Shown: piece after piece, positions 2,570 to 21,007 of the stretch | Position numbering within the stretch: position 1 is the first letter of the stretch | Layout of the letters: every line of letters starts with the position of its first letter | DNA from: Promethearchaeota archaeon | GTDB taxonomy: Archaea > Asgardarchaeota > Lokiarchaeia > Sigyniarchaeales > SOKP01 | NCBI GenBank assembly: GCA_030599585.1 | Contig: JAUVNS010000031.1 | Coordinates: 1 to 21,273, forward strand | DNA: 21,273 bases | Direction: 5' to 3' | Made by a program: the position numbers and the translations under genes | The notes under the pieces: model-generated | Told to the model about the DNA's origin: nothing | Databases searched by the model: none | What the model saw: only the letters and a program-made list of their open reading frames with translations

Positions 2570-3955
2570 TTATTGCTTTATCTCAACCTTGAAAGAAATC
2601 TCACCTGAGGTAGGATTTCTATAGATATCGGAAAGAAATATTCCTGAATTCATTGAAGCGAAAGAGGTTGAGATAGTTCCAGTATCACCTAAGGAATTCA
2701 CATTTTGATCTCCAGGAAATGGATCTCCTGGATCACCCCAATTATAATCAGTCTCCAAATCTAAATATCCATCAGCTTGAACGAGTAAGAGGGCAGGGTT
2801 TATAGGGCTCATCACATGTCCATTTAAATCAACTTTCCAAACAAGCAATCCTTCCCCCGGAAGATCTGAATCGAACCCTAGCTTATTTCGATTTTCTATG
2901 ATAATAAATTGCCCATCCTTAAACTTTGGACTAATTATTTTTAAAATATTACCTGAGGATTTTGAGTAAGGAAATAATACATATTTTTGGGGAGATTGTG
3001 GTCTACTGACAATATCCACTTTAATCCATTCATGCTGAGATTTATGGAGTCCCGCGGGGTGAGATAGGTTATGAACAAAACATCCATTACCCATTAAATC
3101 CCAATATCCTGATCCTGCCCATTTATGCGGATCAGTCTGAGAATAATCTGTGTCGTAAAAATCATCCCATTGAAACGCTAGGTGACCAAATTCATGAGCC
3201 AAAGTACCGAGATCAGGTTTTTGTGAGACAATAATAAAGCAATCAATATTTAAATTAAATGGTGGGCATTTTATCTTATTCCTTATTTGCCCCCAATGAG
3301 CTATTATATGTTTTAAGTTACCTGGCGGATCCAGATAAGCAGCTTCTTTTCCAGAATGTACGATCATGAGAGACCCGACCTTGCCGTTATTTAAGATATC
3401 TAAATCTTGCTCAAAGGTTGTGCCCTTATCTATCGCTATTGTAACTGCCTCTTCTACTAATTTTTGGGAATTATTGGGATAGGAATCTCCATCCATACCA
3501 GAGTCTTTTCCTATATAATAACTATATTTTTCGGGCATTCTAAACCAACCATGGACGGTACCGCATATTTCAACCTTCCCTAAAGATACTTCCTGATAGT
3601 ATTCTTTTAAACTATTAGCTGGAACTATGCTTTTCGAAAATAAGATATCTTCATAAAATTTTTTGCTCATTTTCCCTCTCCTATCTTTAAAATCAACCAA
3701 AAGTACTTTTATTGGGATTCTATCATTAATTTTAACTCTCGGTATATTGATTTTTTTTCTGTCAGAAACCCGTTTTATATTTGGTTGGTTATCATCATCC
3801 CCTTCCATAGATTTAGCCCTATCACGAAATCCTATGTCTATTAAATAATTTCGAAAGCTCAAATCTGGGAATTTTTTTTTTTTCTTTAAGTATTTTTTTC
3901 GCAGTTTTAATATAACATTTGGGTGTGTGGGTATTAATTTTAAAGGTGACATCAA
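2570..3955 (-). CDS. M6 family (immune inhibitor A-like) zinc metalloprotease
   Basis: Motifs VLLVDF, SLKEYYQEVSLG, MIVHSG, HEFGH...DFYD, WDLMGNG, IIENR...GFD..LPGEGLLVW and LVQADG...GDPGDPFPG. Confidence 0.88.
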   Translation of the reverse strand: MMSPLKLIPTHPNVILKLRKKYLKKKKKFPDLSFRNYLIDIGFRDRAKSMEGDDDNQPNIKRVSDRKKINIPRVKINDRIPIKVLLVDFKDRRGKMSKKFYEDILFSKSIVPANSLKEYYQEVSLGKVEICGTVHGWFRMPEKYSYYIGKDSGMDGDSYPNNSQKLVEEAVTIAIDKGTTFEQDLDILNNGKVGSLMIVHSGKEAAYLDPPGNLKHIIAHWGQIRNKIKCPPFNLNIDCFIIVSQKPDLGTLAHEFGHLAFQWDDFYDTDYSQTDPHKWAGSGYWDLMGNGCFVHNLSHPAGLHKSQHEWIKVDIVSRPQSPQKYVLFPYSKSSGNILKIISPKFKDGQFIIIENRNKLGFDSDLPGEGLLVWKVDLNGHVMSPINPALLLVQADGYLDLETDYNWGDPGDPFPGDQNVNSLGDTGTISTSFASMNSGIFLSDIYRNPTSGEISFKVEIKQ

Positions 3956-5080: not shown

Positions 5081-6565
5081 ATGATAATAATCTTATACAG
5101 AATAAAGCCCAGTATTTACCAAACACAATTGACCGATTTTACAGGGTTAAAATCTATTGAAAAATACGACATGAGCGTTCCAAAAGATTACAGAAACGCC
5201 CGAAAAAAATTTCGTTGGATTCCAATACATCCCACATGGGGGGCGCATACTAAGCAAACTCCGAGAACCATACCTAAATCCCAGAAAAGGATTCAAGACT
5301 TCATAGATTGGGAACCAAAACTAAAGGATATATACTTATATCGATTCCCGCGTGTCAAAATCCCCTGTTTTAAAGATTTTGGGATGGGAGTGATCTCTAA
5401 ATTGGAATGGAATATGCATCGATATCTAAAAGGATTTAGCGGATTCTTTGAAAACTTATTTGAATTTAACGATTTTAGCTTTTTCCAGGATCTCCAAGGG
5501 ATTCTTGAGGAACACGGCGTGTCATTTAAGAATATGTTTATTGAGGATGTGCTTGCATATGAAATGTTGCGAATTAACTTGGGCTTTAAAAATTACGCTG
5601 GAATTGAGAAAATGGGGAGGTTTCTTTCTTTTCCACCTCTATTCAGCATTACACATGACTCTAAATTCTTTCCAAAGGCACAAGATATCAGTTATGTAAT
5701 GACCAGAATCCCGCCTGAAGCGCTGTTTGAATTCTTTCAGCTGCTGGTAAAAGAATGCATTAATTATGGTATAATCGTCCCTAGAATCCTAATTTGGGAT
5801 GGTCAATTCATACGTTCAAATTGTAACAATAATAAAAAGAAAGGGCAACCGAAATATACTGATTCTGATGCGGGATATTGTCGCCATAATGGTATCAAGA
5901 AGGGTGTGGGCTATGATCCCGGAATATTATACGTTCATTGCTTTAATCGCTGGTTTCCCATATATTTCAAGATGTTTGCTGGAAATCGGAACGATATTCT
6001 CGCGTTTAGAGAAACAATGGAAGAATTTTTTACACATACGGAATATGAATGGCAAGTACTTATTGCAGATTCGGGCCATTATTCTCTACAAAACATGGAG
6101 AATATGCGATCTAAAGGGCTATTACCAATTATTCGAGCGCGGAAACATCTGAAGACCCATCCTATAAGGGAGTTAAAAAAAGGATTTTTTTTCAATACGG
6201 AATATATTCCAAAAGGATGGTCGGATGATTATTTTCTCAAGATCTACAGCTTTCGACCAATGATTGAGCAAGGAAATTCATACAATTATACGTTTTATAA
6301 TGCCTTTCGGATGAACACTAGGGGAATGGACGCGGCAAGAAAACATCGATCAATAATCTATATTCTAGAACTATTAAAAGCGCTGACTGCGTATAAAATA
6401 GGGCGCCCCAAGTTAATTATGAAGCCTTCTGCTTTTGAATCCTCTCGGCACTCCAATTTTAAACTCATGCTTCCTTACGAAGCACAAAAATCGGGATATA
6501 TTTACTTCAATTCCGACGAAGTATTACGCCGACGAATTAAAAATCGTTATGGGTTAATGTCCTAA
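5081..6565 (+). CDS. DDE transposase (DDE_Tnp_1-like)
   Basis: Catalytic triad contexts ILIWDGQ, LIADSGHYS and YSFRPMIE (Y-2-R-3-E), plus the motifs DSDAGY and AGNRND. The true start may be the ATG at 5171. Confidence 0.9.
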   Translation: MIIILYRIKPSIYQTQLTDFTGLKSIEKYDMSVPKDYRNARKKFRWIPIHPTWGAHTKQTPRTIPKSQKRIQDFIDWEPKLKDIYLYRFPRVKIPCFKDFGMGVISKLEWNMHRYLKGFSGFFENLFEFNDFSFFQDLQGILEEHGVSFKNMFIEDVLAYEMLRINLGFKNYAGIEKMGRFLSFPPLFSITHDSKFFPKAQDISYVMTRIPPEALFEFFQLLVKECINYGIIVPRILIWDGQFIRSNCNNNKKKGQPKYTDSDAGYCRHNGIKKGVGYDPGILYVHCFNRWFPIYFKMFAGNRNDILAFRETMEEFFTHTEYEWQVLIADSGHYSLQNMENMRSKGLLPIIRARKHLKTHPIRELKKGFFFNTEYIPKGWSDDYFLKIYSFRPMIEQGNSYNYTFYNAFRMNTRGMDAARKHRSIIYILELLKALTAYKIGRPKLIMKPSAFESSRHSNFKLMLPYEAQKSGYIYFNSDEVLRRRIKNRYGLMS

Positions 6566-6810: not shown

Positions 6811-8748
6811 ATGAGAATTAAAGACAAAAAATTTAAAATTATATGTATAGTATTAATCACCTTAATAATAAATATTGCATCAATATCTTCGACTTTTGGA
6901 TATCAAGAAAATCAATATGTAGAAGTTATCGTTTTTTTTGAACCGAACGAGAGTGTTGAAGTTTCTGGTGTTGAGTACATCTATCAATGGGAATCCTTAA
7001 ATGCATTTAATGGAAGAATACCATACTCAACATATGAGTTTTTAAAGAAATCACCTTCAGTGAAATTCATTACAACTGAAATAGAAGGAGAAGGATTTAT
7101 GCAACTTGATGAAACTTGTCCTTCTGGCGTTTGGCAAATTGAAGCTGATAGAGTTTGGGGAGGGGAAAGATCACATCCTGCTGTAGGGAACACATATGTA
7201 ATTCCCGGAAATCCATCTGGTCAAGGAATTAAAGTAGCTATTATTGATACTGGTGTAGATAATAACCATAATGATCTAGAAAGTAATTATGGAGGTGGAA
7301 TAAATTATATAGATCTAGGATACCCTCAAGTGGATTATGACGGGCATGGTACGGGATGTGCCGGTATTATTGCTGCAGTAGATAACGAAATAGATGTTAT
7401 AGGTGTAGCGCCACACACTACAATTTATGCCGCTAAAGGAATTACATCTGAGGGTGGGTTTTTTTTAGCTTCTCTATTAAATTGTATTTGTTGGAGTATT
7501 GATAACAATATGGATGTTATATCAATGAGTTGGGGAGCTTACCCTAATTGGAATCCAGCATTAATTGGTATAGCAATTGCTTTAGACATAGCATACGCAA
7601 ATGGCATAGTTCTTGTAGCTTCAACGGGAAATTATCCCACTACTCAGGAAGATCATGTGCTCTTTCCTGCTAGTTTGCCTAGTGTAATAGCTGTAGGTGC
7701 GTCAGATTACAATGGAGAGAGAGTTGATATCCCTGGCTGGTGGTCAAGTTGTTATGGTCCTGAAGTTGATTTTATTGCTCCAGGATTACGTATAATGACT
7801 ACTAAGTTAGGAGGTGGGGCTACTATTTATCCCCACTTTAGTGGTACTTCTGCAGCAGCCCCACATGTTGCAGGAATTTGCGCTTTATTGCTCTCTCAAG
7901 ATCCAACTTTAACTCCATCTGAAATAAAAACAATTTTACAGCTAACTGCTGAAGATGTTGGTGACCCTGGTCAAGATGACGAAACTGGTTTTGGTCTGGT
8001 CAATGCTTATGGAGCTCTCGATGTTGAAAATCCCATAGTAAGTATCACAAATCCATCTTCATATTATGTATCAGGGATAGTATCGATTAGTGCTTCTGCT
8101 TCTGATAATTACAGATTGTATAAAGTTCAATTCAAAATTGATTCTGGGTCGTGGCATATAGATTACGATGCTACAAATGGGTGGTCATGGAATTGGAATA
8201 CAAACAGTTATAGTGATGGAATTCATACAATTTATTGTAGAGCGTATGATGCTCGAGGAAACTGGGCTCAAACTCAGAAAACAGTCAGAGTCCTAAATGG
8301 TGGTGGTGGTGGTGGATGTCCAATTTTATCTGTTTATAACGGATCTGAGTTTATTGATGAAGGCCTATTAGATATCCATAACTCTGATGGTATTGATGTA
8401 GTTACTGTTCACGAACTTGTGACAGAACCGAAATTTGTTAAGAAAAGCTGTTTTCTTCGCCTTACTGAACATCCTTTAACCATTTCACATATTGATAAGG
8501 TAGAACTTTATGGTCGACTCTCCAATGGATCATTAGTACCATTAGCTCTTAAAACAGCGCTTCACTCTTCTCTAGGAAATGTATTACCCGAGTTAAAGTT
8601 TAGTGATGATAACCGGGTTGACGTTCTGGGAGCCATTCACAATAACGGGACCTCTGAGTTCATTGATATAGAATTTAAATCGCTTCCTAATCAGGTTTTT
8701 TCAGGATTTACATTTATCATTGAAGGGCACAATTATATCATAAAATAA
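6811..8748 (+). CDS. Secreted S8 subtilisin-like serine protease with prodomain, Ig-like domain and GGGCP-type C-terminal domain
   Basis: Signal peptide and catalytic triad motifs IIDTG, HGTGCAG and GTSAAAPH, with oxyanion STGN. An Ig-like segment (PIVSITNP...WNTNSYSDGIHTIYCRAYD) is followed by a Gly6 linker and CPILSVYNG. Confidence 0.93.
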   Translation: MRIKDKKFKIICIVLITLIINIASISSTFGYQENQYVEVIVFFEPNESVEVSGVEYIYQWESLNAFNGRIPYSTYEFLKKSPSVKFITTEIEGEGFMQLDETCPSGVWQIEADRVWGGERSHPAVGNTYVIPGNPSGQGIKVAIIDTGVDNNHNDLESNYGGGINYIDLGYPQVDYDGHGTGCAGIIAAVDNEIDVIGVAPHTTIYAAKGITSEGGFFLASLLNCICWSIDNNMDVISMSWGAYPNWNPALIGIAIALDIAYANGIVLVASTGNYPTTQEDHVLFPASLPSVIAVGASDYNGERVDIPGWWSSCYGPEVDFIAPGLRIMTTKLGGGATIYPHFSGTSAAAPHVAGICALLLSQDPTLTPSEIKTILQLTAEDVGDPGQDDETGFGLVNAYGALDVENPIVSITNPSSYYVSGIVSISASASDNYRLYKVQFKIDSGSWHIDYDATNGWSWNWNTNSYSDGIHTIYCRAYDARGNWAQTQKTVRVLNGGGGGGCPILSVYNGSEFIDEGLLDIHNSDGIDVVTVHELVTEPKFVKKSCFLRLTEHPLTISHIDKVELYGRLSNGSLVPLALKTALHSSLGNVLPELKFSDDNRVDVLGAIHNNGTSEFIDIEFKSLPNQVFSGFTFIIEGHNYIIK

Positions 8749-8823: not shown

Positions 8824-9537
8824 ATGGAAAAAATAGAAAGATGGATATATGGATTTTGTTTTCTTCTTGGAGGGCTTTTCTTATTAATTTTTGCGGGAGT
8901 TTCCTTAATAGATTTATTATCAAAAACAATCATCTACTTTCTATTTACATTTGCAATCATAATAATGCTGTATGGTGTTATATTGATTCTAATTGGTACT
9001 TTTATTATGTCCGTTAACATTAGAGTTAAAAAAAGCGTTGCCCTTATTATTTTTTTAATAGGAATAGTAATCATAATCTTATCAATTACTGTGATAATTA
9101 TAGATTCTATTACCATCGTTAATATTTTCGAAATTATTTCAGGTATAGGATTAATTTTTCTCGGAATTAATTTGTTTTCCCACAAAATAAAGTTAAAATA
9201 TGATGAGCAAACAAAAAAAGAGGAAAAACAAAAAAAAGATAAAAAATTAATTGGGGTTGTATCATTCGTAATAGGGTTAATTATTTCACTTTTATGTGGA
9301 TTTTTAATCATCATCACAATGGTTTCATATAACCCTGAATATTTACTCTATAATTTTCCTTTTTTAGTGTTACCTTTTCTAATTGGAATTATTTTATTAA
9401 TTTATGGTGAATATTCGATAAAAGGGAGAAAAAATAAGGTTGTTTTACCAATTTTAAGAGGTTTATTTATCTTATTAATTTTTTTATATATCTTATCAAT
9501 CTTTTTATTTTCAAGAATAGTTTTACTCTTCTATTAA
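8824..9537 (+). CDS. Multi-pass (~7 TM) membrane protein
   Basis: Successive hydrophobic helices split by a charged K/E-rich linker. It lies directly downstream of the protease. Confidence 0.75.
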   Translation: MEKIERWIYGFCFLLGGLFLLIFAGVSLIDLLSKTIIYFLFTFAIIIMLYGVILILIGTFIMSVNIRVKKSVALIIFLIGIVIIILSITVIIIDSITIVNIFEIISGIGLIFLGINLFSHKIKLKYDEQTKKEEKQKKDKKLIGVVSFVIGLIISLLCGFLIIITMVSYNPEYLLYNFPFLVLPFLIGIILLIYGEYSIKGRKNKVVLPILRGLFILLIFLYILSIFLFSRIVLLFY

Positions 9538-9701
9538 AGGTTCAATTTTGAATATGTAAATATGAACCTTAATAAGCCCACAATCGATCCGAATAAAAAC
9601 TATCATACATAACCTATTTTTACAGCAGTACCATCGGTTCCTGGTTTTTTCAACTTTATGAATGTCCTTATATCTTCTTATTATATTATTTGTCAGACTA
9701 T

Positions 9702-10498: not shown

Positions 10499-11083
10499 AA
10501 TAAATCACTTTATCTTTATTTTAAATGATCCTTCAGGATCTATTTAAACTTTACCGCATTATTTTTATATTTATATAAAATTTACTTATACAATTGAATG
10601 TCTAGATTTTTAAATTGTTGCTAGCACGAATTTCGCACCACACAATGATCCTAATGTATAAGATTTAGAAAAGAATGATGTGTAGAAACAATTCATCTTG
10701 GTATTAGTATGTTCTATTAGAGATAGGTGAAATTCAATACAGATAATAATTAGATATAGAAGGCTTAAAACCTGATTTTTAAAAGCTTTATCGATTTAAA
10801 GTTAAGCCACGCAATCATCATATAATTAATTACTTTTAAAAAGAAGATAGGAAAAACTAGGTAGGTAAAATAATAATACTTAATAAACCAATAAACAGCC
10901 TCCTTTCAAATACACAAAAAAGTAATTAGAATTGTTGTTTCATTAGATTCTTATTCATAAATTTTAAATTTAATCTTTTAGATAAGTTAATCTCAAATTC
11001 TAATAAAATGAAGAAACAATTTTAAAGTAGAAATTATATTTAATCATTAGAACCATAATTTATGTAATCCAAAATAAATTTTT

Positions 11084-11863
11084 ATGACTCAAAATACATT
11101 AGTTAGAATAATAAATAAGACTTTCAGCTTAATGCACCTAAGTTATAAAATTAAAAACATTTCAGATAGTAAGAAGAAAATTATGATTCCTTATGATATC
11201 GAAGATGATTTCCTTCAGTTATATTATAAATGTAAAAAATACACAGTATCTACTATCGGAAGCTTGTATTCTCATTATAAAGCAATAATTTTCATAGTAA
11301 AAAACAATATTCCAGGAGATATTGTAGAATGTGGTGTTTGGAAAGGAGGAAGTATGATGCTATGTGCTTTAACTTTATTATCATTGGGTGTTAATGATCG
11401 TAAATTATATTTATATGATACGTATGAAGGTATGAGTAAACCAACTCAATATGACATAAGAGGATTTGATGATCTTAAAGCTGTTTATGAATGGGACAGA
11501 ATGAGAAAATGTGGTGAAAAGTGGCATTTTGAACCTCTTGAAAATGTAAAAAAGAATGTTAATTCCACTCAATATCCTAAAGAGAATATTTTCTTTATAA
11601 AAGGGAAAGTTGAGAATACAATTCCAAGTGTAATCCCTGAAAGGATTGCATTTATAAAACTTGATACTGATTGGTATGAATCAACATATCATGAACTTGG
11701 GTATCTATATCCAAAATTAGCTAAAGATGGAATTTTAATGGTTGATGATTATGGTTATTGGAAGGGATCAAGAAAAGCAGTGGATCAATTCATGGAAGAA
11801 AATAAAATTAAAATATTCTTGAGTAGATATGATAAAACCGGTCGATTAGCAATAAAGCTTTAA
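11084..11863 (+). CDS. TylF/MycF/NovP-family (macrocin-type) SAM-dependent O-methyltransferase
   Basis: Motifs PGDIVECGVWKGGS, LYDTYEG, FIKGKVENTIP, LDTDWYEST and DDYGYWKGSRKAVD. Confidence 0.93.
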   Translation: MTQNTLVRIINKTFSLMHLSYKIKNISDSKKKIMIPYDIEDDFLQLYYKCKKYTVSTIGSLYSHYKAIIFIVKNNIPGDIVECGVWKGGSMMLCALTLLSLGVNDRKLYLYDTYEGMSKPTQYDIRGFDDLKAVYEWDRMRKCGEKWHFEPLENVKKNVNSTQYPKENIFFIKGKVENTIPSVIPERIAFIKLDTDWYESTYHELGYLYPKLAKDGILMVDDYGYWKGSRKAVDQFMEENKIKIFLSRYDKTGRLAIKL

Positions 11864-12113: not shown

Positions 12114-12812
12114 ATGGTTGAAATTGAAATAAATTCAAATTGCAACCGTAAATGTCAATATTGCCCAAATTCTAAATTAAAAAGAACCAATTTACCTCTC
12201 TATATGGACACCGAATTATTTAATAAGATATTAAGTGAACTAAAAAAAATTAATTTCGATGGAAGAATCTCTTATCATTTTTATGGAGAACCACTTTTGC
12301 ATCCAAATTTAGGAAATTTAATTGAGAAAACCTCAAAAATGTTAAAAAAATCAAGGTTAATTCTTTATACAAATGGAGACTTATTGACTGAAAAAAAATA
12401 TTTAGAATTAGTTAAATCTGGTGTAGACTATTTTGTTGTTACGTCTCATTCATTAAAAACATTTCCGAATCGTCCAAAGCAAATAGTCTTATATCCTAAT
12501 AATTTGCATTTAACAAATCGAGGTGGTGTTATTGGGGTTTTAATTGAACCATTTAAGTTCCCGTGTTTTGCACCAACAACAACTTTAATTATCACAATAA
12601 CTGGTGAAATCTTACTTTGTTATGAAGATGCAAGAAGAGAACATGTATTCGGAAACATTATGTACCAACCATTGGAAGAAATTTGGTATTCAAATAAGTT
12701 TATTGAAATTAGAAAACAACTCGCAAGTGGTAATAGAGAAGCGGTTAATATATGCAAAATTTGCAATAATATCGCTCATTTAGAACCTATAAGATATGAT
12801 TATGTTTTATAA
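12114..12812 (+). CDS. btrN: BtrN-like radical SAM dehydrogenase (2-deoxy-scyllo-inosamine dehydrogenase family, Twitch domain)
   Basis: Cx3Cx2C motif (CNRKCQYCPN), GRISYHFYGEPLL, YTNGD, NRGG, four auxiliary Cys (PCFAP, CYED, CKICNN) and a YDYVL C-terminus. All match the BtrN sequence as recalled. Confidence 0.82.
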   Translation: MVEIEINSNCNRKCQYCPNSKLKRTNLPLYMDTELFNKILSELKKINFDGRISYHFYGEPLLHPNLGNLIEKTSKMLKKSRLILYTNGDLLTEKKYLELVKSGVDYFVVTSHSLKTFPNRPKQIVLYPNNLHLTNRGGVIGVLIEPFKFPCFAPTTTLIITITGEILLCYEDARREHVFGNIMYQPLEEIWYSNKFIEIRKQLASGNREAVNICKICNNIAHLEPIRYDYVL

Positions 12813-12945
12813 GTTTAGTATGATCCTAAATGTTAATTTTAAAAAACATAGTATTTTCATTTCTGAATTATTAATAAATTAATATTTTTAAACAATACTA
12901 ACTTATTTTTTTTACAAGGGTGTAAAACATTTCCATTATTTTATA

Positions 12946-14226
12946 ATGAAGAAAAAAAGCGAAATGCTTGCGATTAAGGGAGGAAAGCCAGTTTGGAACG
13001 GAGTATGGCCAAAATGGCCTGAAATAACAGAAAAAGAGCTTAGTAAAGTTATTGAAGTAATGAAATCCGAAAGATGGGCTATAAGCGGCCCTTCTTTAGG
13101 AAAAATATCTTGGGAAAAAAAATTTAGTATAGCTTTTGCAAAATATTGTGGTGTGAATTATTGCGTTCCAACTTGTAATGGTACAAGTGCTTTATTAATT
13201 GCTTTAGAAGCTCTTAACATTGGTTATGGAGATGAAGTCATTGTTCCAATTTTGACATGGGTGGCAACAGCTAGCGCAGTTACAAATGTCAATGCCATTC
13301 CTGTGTTTGTAGATGTAGATCCGAAAACTTTATGTGTATCTCCTGAAGCGATTAATTCTGCAATAACTCCAAATACTAAAGCCATAATACCTGTCCATTT
13401 ATATTCAGGGATGGCAGATATGGATAAATTATCAAAAATATCATCTCAAAATGAAATTCCAATTATTGAAGATTGTTCTCACGTACATGGTGCTTTATGG
13501 AGGGAATCACCAGCGGGATCGATTGGTAAGATTGGCACTTTTAGTATGCAACAGACAAAGGTTCTGACGGCTGGTGAAGGAGGGGCCACAGTAACAAATG
13601 AAAAATCTCTAGCGAATTATATGGAGCAATTACGTGCAGATGGTAGAATTTTTAAGAAAGGAGTTAATATTTTAGGGGAAATGGATATCGTAAAAATGGG
13701 AGATTTACAAGGTAATAATTATTGTTTAACAGAATATCAAGCAGCGTTATTATATGAAAAATTGAAAACTCTAGATTTACAACATGAAAAAAGATGGAAA
13801 AACGCAAAAATCTTAGATAAATTGCTTTTAGAAATTGATGGAATCGTACCATTATCAACATATAAAAGTGTTAAAAAAAGAGTTTATTACCGTTATGTTT
13901 TTAAAATAAATTCCAAAAAAATTAAAGATAAATCCATAGAAGTTATATGTGGACTGCTATCATCAGAATTGGGGATTTCAGTTGAACCTATTTATAAACC
14001 CCTCAATCAATCAAAAATTTATAATCCCTTAAGTAAGAAAAGGTTCCATATTAATGAAGAACATATTAGAAAATTAAAGACACAAGACTTGAACTTTCAT
14101 AAAGCAGAAAAGGCATATAATTCGTTTGTATCACTCCCCCATAGAGTACTATTAGGTAACTATGAGCATCTTCAAGCAATAGCTGATGCAATAACAAAAG
14201 TGTTAGAAAATATTTCAAATTTATAA
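12946..14226 (+). CDS. btrR: BtrR/StsC-like L-glutamine:(2-deoxy-)scyllo-inosose aminotransferase (DegT/DnrJ/EryC1/StrS family)
   Basis: Generic DegT motifs (GDEVIVP, IIPVHLY, IEDCSH) plus subfamily-type motifs WPKWP, RWAISG, FSMQQTKVLTAGEGG (PLP Lys), QLRADGR and GDLQGNNYCLTEYQAA. Confidence 0.82.
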   Translation: MKKKSEMLAIKGGKPVWNGVWPKWPEITEKELSKVIEVMKSERWAISGPSLGKISWEKKFSIAFAKYCGVNYCVPTCNGTSALLIALEALNIGYGDEVIVPILTWVATASAVTNVNAIPVFVDVDPKTLCVSPEAINSAITPNTKAIIPVHLYSGMADMDKLSKISSQNEIPIIEDCSHVHGALWRESPAGSIGKIGTFSMQQTKVLTAGEGGATVTNEKSLANYMEQLRADGRIFKKGVNILGEMDIVKMGDLQGNNYCLTEYQAALLYEKLKTLDLQHEKRWKNAKILDKLLLEIDGIVPLSTYKSVKKRVYYRYVFKINSKKIKDKSIEVICGLLSSELGISVEPIYKPLNQSKIYNPLSKKRFHINEEHIRKLKTQDLNFHKAEKAYNSFVSLPHRVLLGNYEHLQAIADAITKVLENISNL

Positions 14227-14478: not shown

Positions 14479-15063
14479 ATGGTTAGTTTACGATTAGCAG
14501 CTAAATACTCTAAAAAGAGATTTGAAATGCAAGAAAAAACAAAATTTTTCTATATTTGCGCTATCCTCTCAATTATGCGGGTACCTTTCGCAATTTTAAT
14601 CTTCTTTTTTATTTTCCAGAGGATAATTATTGGAGCATTCATAATTTTTCTTATTGCTGCACTATCAGATATTCTAGATGGCAAAATTTCGCGAAAGTCA
14701 AAACAAGATAGTAGATTAGGATGGATACTTGAAAATATTGTAGATAATGTTCTTTTCTTCTTTACCTTTTTGTCTTTGGCTTTAAATAATTATTTACCTT
14801 ATTGGTTTTTTTCTATTAGCTTAATGATGATTTTTATTCAACTATTTTGTTTTTCACTCCTCGCAAGGGATAAAAATAGAGTAAATTTTGATGAATCATA
14901 CTATTTATACGGGAGCGTTCCTTTTTTTTGGGGCATTCCTATTTTGTTTTTTTTGGGAATTCTTAATAATGTAATTCTTCTTATTGCTACCATTATAATC
15001 TTATTTGCTTCAATAGATCTTTTTTATGAATTTTTTTCAGCTTATGGAAAGAAACTTGAATGA
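14479..15063 (+). CDS. CDP-alcohol phosphatidyltransferase family protein with a variant motif
   Basis: Multi-TM protein with LSIMR. DILDGKISR...G-WIL-E-NIV-D compares with the canonical DxxDGxxAR...GxxxDxxxD. The start may be 14527. Confidence 0.85.
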   Translation: MVSLRLAAKYSKKRFEMQEKTKFFYICAILSIMRVPFAILIFFFIFQRIIIGAFIIFLIAALSDILDGKISRKSKQDSRLGWILENIVDNVLFFFTFLSLALNNYLPYWFFSISLMMIFIQLFCFSLLARDKNRVNFDESYYLYGSVPFFWGIPILFFLGILNNVILLIATIIILFASIDLFYEFFSAYGKKLE

Positions 15064-15164: not shown

Positions 15165-15440
15165 GATTTCGCCCTAATTCGCTCCCTAAACATCCTTTAA
15201 TCAAGAGGTTATATATCATTTCCAACATGAGACTCTAAATAGAGTCTTAGATTTCTTATGGACTGAAAAGTAAAATTAGACTTACTTTTCAATTCCATGC
15301 GTATTTAACCTTTAATAAAAGAGAACAGGTGAATATTAAAAGAAAGAGAAGGGAAAAGAAATCTGAGCATTTTTATTTAAAATTAGGGAGAGTTTAAACC
15401 CAGTTGAGTTTAATAGGGGGCGAAATCCGATTTAGCTCAA
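15165..15440 (+). ncRNA. Candidate structured RNA or MITE-like element
   Basis: Five nested helices plus one crossing 12-bp helix (coordinates in findings). G-U pairs favour the + strand. Confidence 0.45.
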
Positions 15441-15697
15441 ATTGTCTTGGTATAAGGTTCCCTTTCTACATTTTATTAAGAAATTCAAATATTAAAACTC
15501 TATCGAAATAGCTATTAAAAAAAGCGGAATCGATAAATCAGAAATTGGGAATTTTGATACTATTTTGGATATTGTCTTTTTTTTTTAACTCCTTCAGGAT
15601 GGAAAAATTAATAAACAGTGCTATTTACAATTGAAATAATCCATAGACACATTTGTAATAAATATGAATATTATAAATATTTAGAGGAGGTTATAAA

Positions 15698-18647: not shown

Positions 18648-18743
18648 TTATAGTATGAATTATTACATCATTTCATAATTTTTGTTAAGAATTTTTGTTA
18701 TACTATGAATTATTACATCATTTCATAATTTTTGTTAAGAATT
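18639..18743. repeat. 50-bp tandem duplication (2.1 copies)
   Basis: 18639-18688 and 18689-18738 differ at one base. Each unit contains two AATTTTTGTTA subrepeats and a TATGAA/TTCATA inverted pair. Confidence 0.92.
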
Positions 18744-19078
18744 CGCAGTTCAAAAAACCAATTATAAGCGCCCGTTGTAGGAATCTCGTGATTACCTAAA
18801 ACGAATACTATATAAACGCCTTGATTTTTTATGGTATAAAGTAAATCATAGATTCTCTTAAATTCGGGATTATTGCATAAGTTTCTAAAAGTATTCATAA
18901 TGATGTCAAATGTATCTCCAAGGATAATAAAAGTTTTCAATTGAGGTAGATTACCTCGTTCTATATCTTGAAATAAATTAAGGAGAAATAGCTCAAATTC
19001 GCTTATTTTACAATATAAATCACCTAAGTGAATGTCCGATATAACAATTACCAATGATTTTCTATTAAATGTAGTCAT
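18713..19078 (-). pseudogene. 3'-truncated calcineurin-like metallophosphoesterase
   Basis: SDIHLG, GDTFD and GNHE are present, but the later His and GHxH motifs are absent. The ORF ends inside the 50-bp repeat. Confidence 0.8.
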
Positions 19079-19523: not shown

Positions 19524-20396
19524 ATGTCGGATAGGTTAGCAAATGTAAAAGAACGTAGGGCAATGATTGTACCTGTAGGTCTTGAAGTAGCAAGAATTAT
19601 TGAGGGGTTTACTCCTTATGCTATAAATGTACTTTATTTAATAACAAACCCAGAAAACAATTCTGAAGGAAAAACAACTAATGTGAATGATAAAAAGAAA
19701 AAATTATCTTCAGTACAAAAATATACCCTCAAATTTGCTAAAATGATAAAGAGAAAATTCGAAGATTCTTACTTAATTGTGGAATTTAAATATGCCGCTT
19801 TAAATTCTTTTTATGAATGTTATAATATTTTAGATGAGATCTACAAAGAAGAGATTGCAACAAATAAATTAAAACACATTTTCATTAATGTATCTACCGC
19901 ATCTAAAGCCTTTGCGTTATCTGCATATGTTTTTGCTCTAATACATTTTAATATAGTGACAATTTTTTATATGAAGGCATCTAAATATCTTATTTTAGAA
20001 TATTTAGAAAAAGATGGTTCAATAAAAGAATTGGAAACAGAGTTTTTAAAAAATGGTTTAACAAAAGGGCCATATAAAATTGAGGAAATTCCAACTTTTC
20101 CTATATTAGAATTTTCTCAAGATGAAAAAACTTTGATAAAAATACTTGCTATTCAAGATCAATTTAACACTATAAAAGAAATCATAAGAGAATTCGTTAC
20201 TGAAACCGACCAATCTGTTGAATGGGACGATTTAAAAAAAAAAGATAAAAATCGTTATAGAACAAAGGTAAAACGGCTATTAGATAACTTGCAACGTAAG
20301 CGCCACATCGAATATGAAAAAAAAGCAAATAAAATAAATGTTAAAGTCAATGAAAGCTTAAAACATATTGATCAGATAATTAATTGGCAAGCATAA
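19524..20396 (+). CDS. CARF-like Rossmann + winged-HTH transcription regulator (DUF6293/HFX_2341/Csa3-like)
   Basis: Motifs IVPVGLEVARI, LYLIT, IFINVSTASK, IFYMKASKY and IEEIPTFPI, then a C-terminal wHTH (KVKRLLDNLQRKRHIEYEK). Confidence 0.78.
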   Translation: MSDRLANVKERRAMIVPVGLEVARIIEGFTPYAINVLYLITNPENNSEGKTTNVNDKKKKLSSVQKYTLKFAKMIKRKFEDSYLIVEFKYAALNSFYECYNILDEIYKEEIATNKLKHIFINVSTASKAFALSAYVFALIHFNIVTIFYMKASKYLILEYLEKDGSIKELETEFLKNGLTKGPYKIEEIPTFPILEFSQDEKTLIKILAIQDQFNTIKEIIREFVTETDQSVEWDDLKKKDKNRYRTKVKRLLDNLQRKRHIEYEKKANKINVKVNESLKHIDQIINWQA

Positions 20397-20710: not shown

Positions 20711-21007
20711 GTGAAAATGGTGGAGAAAATGAAACTAAAAGTGACTACAGCATTGATAGTATCATTGCTTTTGATAAATGTCATAGCATTTGTTACACCA
20801 GTGAAAGCTGCTGATCCTAATCGTATCTTAATGATTGATGCCATGGCAAAAGGAGATTACTTAGATATTTCTGGAGCTACTAATTCTATCATTGCAAAGA
20901 TTAAATATGATAAAGTCAGTGGTAACCCTTTGGCACAAGTAGAATTGCAATATCAGAAGAAGAACAAGCCTTCCATCGTGCAAGACCTTTACTGTATAAT
21001 GATGTGA
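20711..21007 (+). pseudogene. N-terminus of a secreted protein, probably truncated or frameshifted
   Basis: GAGGTGA SD before the ATG at 20717 and a signal peptide ending VTPVKA|ADP. The C-terminus is short and aberrant, and an overlapping frame stays open to ~21083. Confidence 0.5.

Follow-up and report, generated by a model that had tools for sequence, protein, structure and literature searches.

Aminocyclitol chemistry of the BtrN and BtrR type is textbook antibiotic biosynthesis, at home in Actinomycetota and Bacillota. Other aminocyclitols begin from inositol: in the streptomycin pathway scyllo-inosamine is made from myo-inositol by an NAD-dependent dehydrogenase together with StsC, and rhizopine, which is 3-O-methyl-scyllo-inosamine, is likewise inositol-derived. 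In archaea, chemistry of the BtrN/BtrR type has so far been predicted once, as a 2-deoxystreptamine (2-DOS) cluster in a Thermoproteota metagenome-assembled genome (MAG), in a report that calls such pathways exceedingly rare in archaea (PMC13635244, 2026). Calditol synthase (Cds) provides the precedent for a radical S-adenosylmethionine (SAM) enzyme that makes an unusual cyclitol head group on archaeal lipids (review PMC13459092). Here we describe a BtrN-like/BtrR-like gene pair on a 21,273-bp stretch of DNA (hereafter the window), which is one whole contig (C17, 29% GC) of an Asgard archaeal genome. The pair is joined there to a methyltransferase and to a one-of-a-kind transferase of the head-group type, with no cyclase, glycosyltransferase or resistance gene. 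Our central reading, which we regard as evenly poised, is that this locus is an inositol-fed aminocyclitol cassette whose product would be conjugated by a dedicated transferase.

The sequence-only reading of the window had singled out two adjacent genes, encoding the BtrN-like protein P0001 and the BtrR-like protein P0002. The pair lies within a cluster of four genes, all on the + strand; the other two were missed by that reading. The cluster comprises:

11084..11863, + strand: TylF/NovP/MycF-family SAM-dependent O-methyltransferase, 259 aa (PF05711, 133 bits)

12114..12812, + strand: BtrN-family twitch radical-SAM dehydrogenase, P0001, 232 aa (PDB 4M7T over its full length, E 1.7e-53)

12946..14226, + strand: BtrR/BtrS-family pyridoxal phosphate (PLP)-dependent cyclitol (inosose) aminotransferase, P0002, 426 aa (PF01041, 300 bits)

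14527..15063, + strand: divergent cytidine diphosphate (CDP)-alcohol phosphatidyltransferase, 178 aa when counted from Met17 (PF01066, 59 bits)

When compared with all PDB sequences, P0001 matches BtrN, the radical-SAM dehydrogenase of the butirosin pathway (4M7S/4M7T), end to end (residues 1-232, E 1.7e-53), while the next PDB family reaches only E 4.7e-3. P0001 runs colinear with BtrN throughout, and the two are close in size (232 aa for P0001, 250 aa for BtrN). The Pfam domains of P0001 are Radical_SAM and SPASM, and it reaches no NCBIfam equivalog. The four motifs that the sequence-only reading had reported for this open reading frame (ORF; 12114-12812) are all present, HFYGEPLL at residue 55, NRGG at 135, CYED at 169 and the C-terminal YDYVL at 228; they align to the same motifs in BtrN, the form common to both at CYED being C(F/Y)ED, and fall in columns that are invariant or nearly so across 38 BtrN-like proteins. 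The arginine of NRGG (R136) lies on BtrN R152. P0001 contains exactly seven cysteines, in a 3+4 cluster pattern. Three of them form a CX3CX2C motif at the extreme N-terminus, as in BtrN, with C10/C14/C17 placed on the BtrN residues C16/C20/C23 that ligate the SAM cluster (PMC9012708). The other four (C151/C169/C214/C217) are invariant in the alignment of 38 homologues and would fit a single auxiliary [4Fe-4S] cluster, that is, a twitch rather than a two-cluster SPASM architecture; BtrN itself has one auxiliary [4Fe-4S] cluster, fully Cys4-ligated (PMC10337720, PMC9012708). The claim that the resemblance to BtrN is of subfamily rank is borne out by the gap between the first and second PDB families, and P0001 groups with BtrN and not with generic SPASM enzymes, so that it is a member of the BtrN family at the subfamily level. 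P0001 nonetheless differs from the Paenibacillus BtrN in that the two are only ~38% identical, in its position on a different branch of the family tree, and in its host, an archaeon whose genome has no 2-deoxy-scyllo-inosose (2-DOI) synthase.

P0002 belongs to the DegT family (DegT/DnrJ/EryC1, fold type I; PF01041). Its closest structures are the 2-deoxy-scyllo-inosose aminotransferases 5W70, 5W71 and 2C7T (E ~1e-110, 371-379 bits), and all other structures score at most 170 bits. The next class is 3-amino-5-hydroxybenzoic acid (AHBA) synthase (E 9.6e-49), with nucleoside diphosphate (NDP)-sugar aminotransferases weaker still, and a structure labelled 'glutamine-scyllo-inositol transaminase' (7B0D) matches at E 5.7e-45. 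Here too the motifs noted from the sequence are found in the ORF (12946-14226), RWAISG at residue 43, QQTKVLTAGEGG at 202, QLRAD at 228 and QGNNYCL at 255, and each aligns to its counterpart in Paenibacillus chitinolyticus BtrR, with which P0002 shares 44% identity. K205 falls on BtrR K192 within the conserved QQxKVLTAGEGG, a residue that we take to be the PLP lysine; RWAISG, QLRAD and QGxNYCL are likewise kept. Two other DegT paralogues in the host genome are 34-40% identical to P0002. As had been argued for the pair, the grouping of P0002 is with BtrR and not with NDP-sugar aminotransferases, and the protein can be assigned to the BtrR family of cyclitol aminotransferases at subfamily level.

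The pair could in principle act on something other than a cyclitol, such as a sugar or nucleotide sugar of a glycan, and merely resemble BtrN and BtrR. Many BtrR-like homologues are annotated as 'dTDP-4-amino-4,6-dideoxygalactose transaminase' (JGI), GT2 is the commonest neighbour of BtrN-like genes, and two close relatives of P0001 (P0004 and P0005) lie in uninformative contexts. We consider this explanation improbable, since a gap of ~200 bits separates the cyclitol aminotransferases from every NDP-sugar aminotransferase structure, BtrN-like genes are repeatedly linked to genes for the carbocycle-forming dehydroquinate synthase (DHQS)-like enzymes and inositol-1-phosphate synthase (MIPS), and Pfam scans found no nucleotide-sugar gene in the window. 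These scans covered all ORFs of at least 80 aa except four short ones nested inside or opposite longer annotated genes.

The genomic contexts of BtrN-like genes show how far this chemistry extends. A large protein collection yielded 205 BtrN-like proteins, and those in named genomes are almost all bacterial, with hosts in Acidobacteriota, Bdellovibrionota, Actinomycetota, Xenorhabdus/Photorhabdus, Paenibacillus, Acetivibrio, Parachlamydiales and other groups. Of 74 named BtrN-like loci, 39 contain a BtrR-like gene within ±10 kb, as does our cluster, where the two genes adjoin; in the same range a DHQS-like gene is found at 19 and MIPS at five. BtrN/BtrR-like pairs are therefore far commoner in bacteria than aminoglycoside producers, and their motifs would mark a broad cyclitol-modifying family rather than butirosin-type chemistry in particular.

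Two types of cassette recur. The first combines DHQS, DegT, GT2 and BtrN genes and is exemplified by metagenome loci L092 and L093. Locus L092 (572-11184) encodes a DHQS-like protein, two DegT proteins, a GT2 glycosyltransferase, a BtrN-like protein and an FmrO-type 16S rRNA methyltransferase, and has the appearance of a true aminoglycoside-type cluster, self-resistance included, from an uncultured organism of ~40% GC. The second combines MIPS, DegT and BtrN genes (L094, L014, Acetivibrio, Solidesulfovibrio and Halarcobacter). Its most compact form is a MIPS-BtrR-BtrN operon in an Acidobacteriota MAG (L014, 7498-10732), and MIPS-BtrR-BtrN or MIPS-BtrN cassettes, including L055:8682-10735, L065 and L049, are present in Acetivibrio mesophilus, A. 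straminisolvens, Solidesulfovibrio and Halarcobacter; the MIPS-linked locus of Acetivibrio also carries GH3, GT2, MFS and ETF genes. Judged by gene content, the MIPS-BtrR-BtrN cassettes appear to be an uncharacterised class of inositol-fed aminocyclitol pathway in anaerobes.

The nearest relative of P0001 is also linked to MIPS: this is P0003 (66% identity), which is encoded directly beside a MIPS gene. FastTree places the two as sisters (SH-like support 98) in a phylogeny of 145 sequences, with P0004 and P0005 next, whose contexts (Vut_1 and QueF) say nothing about function. The MIPS of locus L006 is not Asgard-like. A 580-aa radical-SAM/SPASM-GT2 fusion at L114 (3778-5520), encoded in a sugar-modification cluster beside a BtrR homologue of 60% identity, was considered as a BtrN orthologue and rejected, being only 24% identical to P0001.

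The precursor inventory of the host points the same way as this relative. The genome, estimated to be 100% complete, has no protein of the dehydroquinate synthase fold (no PF01761 match), and 21 BtrC/DHQS-like queries taken from other BtrN loci gave no tblastn match in it. It does encode MIPS, on contig C8, along with two genes of the inositol monophosphatase (IMPase) family and the CDP-archaeol synthase CarS. Both genome searches, which had been proposed with the sequence-only reading, gave the result that it predicted. Two sources had been put forward for the ring, deoxy-inosose made elsewhere and inositol; because there is no DHQS-like cyclase, MIPS is present and the nearest BtrN relative is MIPS-linked, the evidence appears to favour inositol and to disfavour deoxy-inosose. 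If an aminocyclitol is made at all, we think it likely that inositol feeds it. The supply of 2-DOI by a BtrC-type synthase, which is the pathway context that defines a dehydrogenase acting on 2-deoxy-scyllo-inosamine (DOIA), is missing, and DOIA is unlikely to be the substrate of P0001 because the genome has no 2-DOI synthase. P0002 would also differ from BtrR in its keto substrate, which is likely to be not 2-DOI but an inosose that bears a hydroxyl at C2.

These results also bear on whether the locus is a fragment of a true 2-DOS or aminoglycoside pathway, in which 2-deoxy-scyllo-inosose would come from elsewhere and pass through BtrR, BtrN and BtrR again on the way to a 2-DOS antibiotic. 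Both P0001 and P0002 are closest to characterised 2-DOS pathway enzymes, DHQS-like DOI synthases accompany BtrN at the 19 named loci and at L092 and L093, the former with its FmrO-type methyltransferase, and a 2-DOS cluster has been predicted in an archaeon already (PMC13635244). Against this, the genome has no protein of the required fold and the closest BtrN relative is linked to MIPS. Moreover, Pfam scans of the window found no 2-DOI synthase, pseudo-disaccharide glycosyltransferase, self-resistance gene or exporter, in line with the earlier remark that cyclase, glycosyltransferase and resistance genes are lacking there. We therefore hold a 2-DOS product to be quite improbable.

Two further genes complete the cluster. 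The TylF-like protein has its nearest structures in NovP (2WK1, E 1.5e-21) and MycF. Its translation shows two acidic motifs, LDTDWY (DxD) and VDDYGYW (DD), which we presume, from the literature on NovP, to hold the metal ligands.

Independent evidence on the cluster comes from a Logan contig, L106 (run SRR26080962; 8.1 kb, 27% GC), which carries the same four genes. Amino acid identities between C17 and L106 are 92% for the BtrN-like protein, 90% for the BtrR-like protein, 78% for the transferase and 96% for the TylF-like protein. Pairwise ratios of nonsynonymous to synonymous substitution rates (dN/dS) range from 0.17 to 0.49 (0.49, 0.18, 0.20 and 0.17 in the same order), so that all four genes are under purifying selection. 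The arrangement is not the same: relative to C17, L106 has the TylF segment inverted and placed downstream of the transferase gene. C17 retains a trace of this rearrangement next to the TylF gene:

10834..10900, abutting the inverted TylF segment: 67-bp remnant of the 3' end of the DUF362 gene that flanks the cluster on L106; a rearrangement scar

The remnant matches L106 positions 6107-6173 in reverse orientation (blastn, 94% identity). The DUF362 gene of L106 is in turn 73% identical to one on contig C35 of the host, which also carries an actin homologue.

The fourth protein is the most unusual member of the cluster. Its longest ORF begins at 14479, but the start of the L106 orthologue corresponds to Met17 (14527). 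An AlphaFold2 model has six helices (pLDDT 87.8, pTM 0.83), and its best fold match is PgsA (7DRK, TM 0.69), although the Foldseek E-values are only ~2e-3; the 28 best-ranked are without exception CDP-alcohol phosphotransferases, with phosphatidylinositol phosphate (PIP) synthases, AF2299, PSS and IPCT-DIPPS (4MND being the DIPPS) following PgsA. PgsA and PIP synthases act on CDP-lipids, to which they add a small polyol or serine as the head group. The family signature D1xxD2G1xxAR...G2xxxD3xxxD4 reads DxxDGxxSR...GxxxExxxD in this protein: D1, D2, G1, R, G2 and D4 are present, while S stands in place of A and E in place of D3. Relatives carry A at the first of these positions in 138/140 cases and D at the second in 136/140, and both replacements recur in the L106 orthologue.

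The transferase thus shares its Pfam family, six-helix fold and most signature residues with archaetidylinositol phosphate (AIP) synthase, PIP synthase and PgsA, but it stands far below the cut-offs of the NCBIfam equivalogs. Its best matches to hidden Markov models (HMMs) are the lipid synthases ClsA (42 bits) and PgsA (38 bits against a cut-off of 109), and the AIP synthase equivalog NF040950 is reached at 30.5 bits against a cut-off of 180. It is also additional to the host's own set of one archaetidylserine-synthase-like protein and four AIP-synthase-like paralogues, the latter scoring 74-159 bits on NF040950. A word-index search returned the L106 orthologue as the one match, and when 1.84 billion representatives were searched exhaustively with HMMER, no further close relative came to light, the next match having 28% identity and 74 bits; this nearest relative outside the cluster is encoded beside a CarS-like CDP-archaeol synthase gene. 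A search of 70 genomes of the same family likewise failed to find the transferase. It therefore appears to be an orphan lineage: the only contigs on which it was found are the two that also carry BtrN, BtrR and TylF genes.

Building on the four family memberships, the apparently intact catalytic and cofactor residues, the purifying selection, the co-retention on L106 and the precursor inventory, we infer a pathway in which the substrate, the number of aminations, the site of methylation and the lipid link are proposals. Myo-inositol or inositol-1-phosphate would be supplied by the host's own MIPS and IMPase, which are encoded elsewhere in the genome. P0001 would then oxidise a ring CH-OH to a ketone, with hydrogen abstraction by the 5'-deoxyadenosyl radical and, as in BtrN, transfer of an electron to the single Cys-ligated auxiliary [4Fe-4S] cluster. 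P0002 would turn the ketone into an amine to give an inosamine, and a second round giving a diamine is possible. The TylF/NovP-type enzyme would O-methylate a ring hydroxyl, and the transferase would link the cyclitol, through a phosphodiester, with a CDP-activated partner, most parsimoniously CDP-archaeol, which would yield an aminocyclitol phospholipid head group. Modification could take place before or after attachment to the lipid.

The steps of this scheme differ in how firmly they can be held. That an aminocyclitol is made seems to us a good bet, given the families to which the pair belongs; the mono- or diaminocyclitol originally proposed for the host is supported by these memberships and by the presence of MIPS, and was incomplete in lacking the methyltransferase and the transferase. 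Because a TylF-type methyltransferase and an orphan transferase lie in the same cluster, the product is probably methylated and phospho-linked rather than a free core of the aminoglycoside style. The weakest step is the phospho-link to a lipid, which we put forward tentatively and at somewhat less than even confidence. It is suggested by the predicted fold of the transferase, closest to PgsA and then to PIP synthases, by a distribution that appears to match that of the cluster, and by the position of its nearest outside relative beside a CarS-like gene.

The scheme has parallels in both inositol-derived systems introduced above. The streptomycin and rhizopine routes also run from inositol through an inosose to an inosamine by means of a DegT-family aminotransferase, and rhizopine is O-methylated as well. 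Here, in contrast, the oxidation is predicted to be carried out by a radical-SAM enzyme instead of an NAD-dependent dehydrogenase, and the cluster includes a TylF/NovP-type methyltransferase and a CDP-alcohol transferase. Calditol synthase shares with it the idea of a cyclitol head group but is unrelated in sequence and chemistry, as its reaction is a ring contraction on a glucose head group, with no amination.

Several observations weigh against this reading. With gaps of 133-300 bp between them, the genes may not form a single operon. L106 comes from a close relative (dS 0.07-0.6), in which neighbourhoods would be conserved by descent anyway. DHQS-linked and MIPS-linked members are interleaved in the BtrN tree, where Acetivibrio (MIPS) groups with Paenibacillus (DHQS) at support 95, so that the precursor type cannot be read from the BtrN sequence and is to be inferred from context. 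The first oxidation may be NAD-dependent, given that the host genome encodes at least nine GFO/IDH/MocA oxidoreductases. The A-to-S and D3-to-E replacements at near-invariant positions could mean that the donor, the acceptor and even the activity of the transferase are unusual. The recurrent partners at other BtrN-like loci are GT2 and GT4 glycosyltransferases, and blastp and a signature regex applied to all ORFs of 84 other BtrN-like loci found no CDP-alcohol transferase, so that the coupling has no independent support from distant loci. Finally, a literature search found no inosamine or aminocyclitol phospholipid, and to our knowledge none has been described.

Some of these points would sit well with a soluble product. 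This could be an inosamine or O-methylinosamine resembling rhizopine, which would serve as a signal molecule, a store of nitrogen, an osmolyte or an antibiotic-like compound and to which the transferase would be functionally unrelated, or else a soluble phosphodiester such as the di-myo-inositol phosphate made by DIPPS. The partners of bacterial MIPS- and DHQS-type cassettes are glycosyltransferases, carbamoyltransferases, MFS/ABC exporters and GNAT enzymes, which point to products that are soluble or secreted, and none of the 84 loci couples BtrN to a CDP-alcohol transferase; the gaps between the cluster genes allow independent transcription; and DIPPS, whose substrates are soluble, is of the same fold family and is among the fold matches (4MND). 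On the other hand, the transferase shares the narrow distribution of the other three genes with no orthologue elsewhere, and it has been kept beside them under purifying selection despite a rearrangement. Its best fold and HMM matches are the lipid synthases PgsA and ClsA, and Pfam scans found no cytidylyltransferase in the cluster that could make a CDP-cyclitol donor. A soluble product is for these reasons a possible but less than favoured outcome, and we retain conjugation by the dedicated transferase as our central reading.

The host of the cluster is an Asgard archaeon of the Lokiarchaeia type. Its assembly (G000; 4.85 Mb in 52 contigs, estimated as 100% complete and 8.9% contaminated) contains a full-length archaeal small-subunit (SSU) rRNA (1458 bits) and four genes of the actin family, of which the best scores 442 bits; these together indicate an Asgard host and bear out the description of the genome as archaeal. 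The cluster itself is rare in this phylum. At E <= 1e-20, P0001 has a match in one of 300 other genomes of the phylum and in none of 27 congeners, and congeners G258 and G264 have no cluster at the DNA level. The single other Asgard match (G038, 36% identity) lies among ferredoxin, FrhB and ETF genes; with no aminotransferase beside it, it is uninformative as a parallel to the cluster. As the cluster was not found in ~300 other Asgard genomes, it is likely to be an accessory, lineage-restricted acquisition by horizontal transfer, and the donor was probably bacterial.

This rarity raises the question of whether C17 is archaeal at all or a mis-binned fragment of a bacterium or mobile element. 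The estimated contamination, the overwhelmingly bacterial distribution of BtrN-like genes, the absence of the cluster from the 27 congeners and ~300 genomes of the phylum, an HFX_2341-like gene on the contig that is missing from 30 congeners, and a transposase would all be compatible with mis-binning. The composition of the contig argues otherwise: its GC content (29%) is close to that of the genome (~32%), its tetranucleotide distance falls at the 81st percentile of the genome's 20-kb chunks, within the range of the genome, and GC content at third codon positions (GC3) is 0.19-0.23 in the four cluster genes, equal to that in the neighbouring S8, leucine-rich repeat (LRR) and HFX genes. Other host contigs hold paralogues of the C-terminal domain of the S8 protease, of the LRR protein and of the ORF at 20711 (80% identity). 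In congener G258 the S8 protease and the adjacent membrane protein are present at 94-95% amino acid identity, with 96% DNA identity over 2.9 kb. L106 provides a physical link between the cluster and a DUF362 gene that is 73% identical to the one on the actin-bearing contig C35. A further tie between C17 and the rest of the genome lies next to the cluster:

15192..15547, just downstream of the cluster: intergenic repeats shared with other contigs of the same genome

These repeats recur on host contigs C30 (88% identity over 313 bp), C39 (93% over 55 bp), C4 and C52, and a 48-mer within them matches C4 at 98% identity and congener G258 at 100%; they may represent a small family of mobile or regulatory elements in the genus. 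Composition, paralogues, repeats and synteny with G258 together make mis-binning of C17 unlikely, and we give it very little weight.

A weak inverted repeat of 47 nt (70% complementary; 9500-9546 and 15303-15349) flanks a 5.7-kb segment that holds the cluster, and lies near the break of synteny with congener G258 (window position 9595). Either a chance match within an AT-rich sequence or the termini of a mobile cassette could account for it; beyond weak AT-rich matches, a repeat search around the cluster found nothing more.

The rest of the window contains further genes of note:

2570-3955, - strand: M6 (immune inhibitor A-like) metallopeptidase, GC3 0.44, twice that of surrounding genes

5081-6565: IS4-like DDE transposase, 494 aa, GC3 0.37 against ~0.2 in its neighbours

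6811-8748: S8 subtilase with a Big_7 domain and a ~170-aa C-terminal domain

18713-19078, - strand: calcineurin-like metallophosphoesterase ORF, 121 aa, matching the first 81 of 191 profile positions

19524-20396: protein with an HFX_2341-like N-terminal domain and a DUF6293 winged helix

The transposase has no second copy in the genome. The metallopeptidase has no paralogue there either and is possibly another foreign gene, and the calcineurin-like ORF is probably a truncated gene. The C-terminal domain of the S8 subtilase is also found on five other host contigs and in congeners G258 (in an orthologue of 95% identity) and G264, and appears to be a lineage-specific module of secreted proteases. 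A search of 30 genomes of the same genus did not find the HFX_2341-like/DUF6293 gene; taken with the other results, this suggests that C17 as a whole is accessory DNA. Neither an Rfam scan nor a tRNA scan gave any match in the window. A sigma-70 promoter scan gave fewer hits than shuffled sequences, and scans for bacterial-type promoters and terminators do not apply to an archaeon.

All four protein families of the cluster are known; new are their combination, the orphan transferase and the Asgard host. In its most far-reaching form, which we offer as speculation, our reading would have an Asgard lineage make a new class of archaeal membrane lipid whose head group is a phospho-linked and possibly O-methylated inosamine ('archaetidyl-inosamine'), by means of a horizontally acquired radical-SAM/aminotransferase pair, which would need no NAD-dependent dehydrogenase to aminate inositol, and an orphan transferase, with MIPS-BtrR-BtrN cassettes representing an unrecognised anaerobic radical-SAM route that leads from inositol to aminocyclitols in many bacterial phyla. 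The MIPS-linked BtrN/BtrR pairs of cultured anaerobes such as Acetivibrio make a radical-SAM route from inositol to inosamine directly testable. If the product does turn out to be a lipid head group, the lineage would have a new zwitterionic archaeal phospholipid that might serve as its biomarker, and the archaea nearest to eukaryotes would offer an example of genes from bacterial secondary metabolism being rewired for membrane biology.

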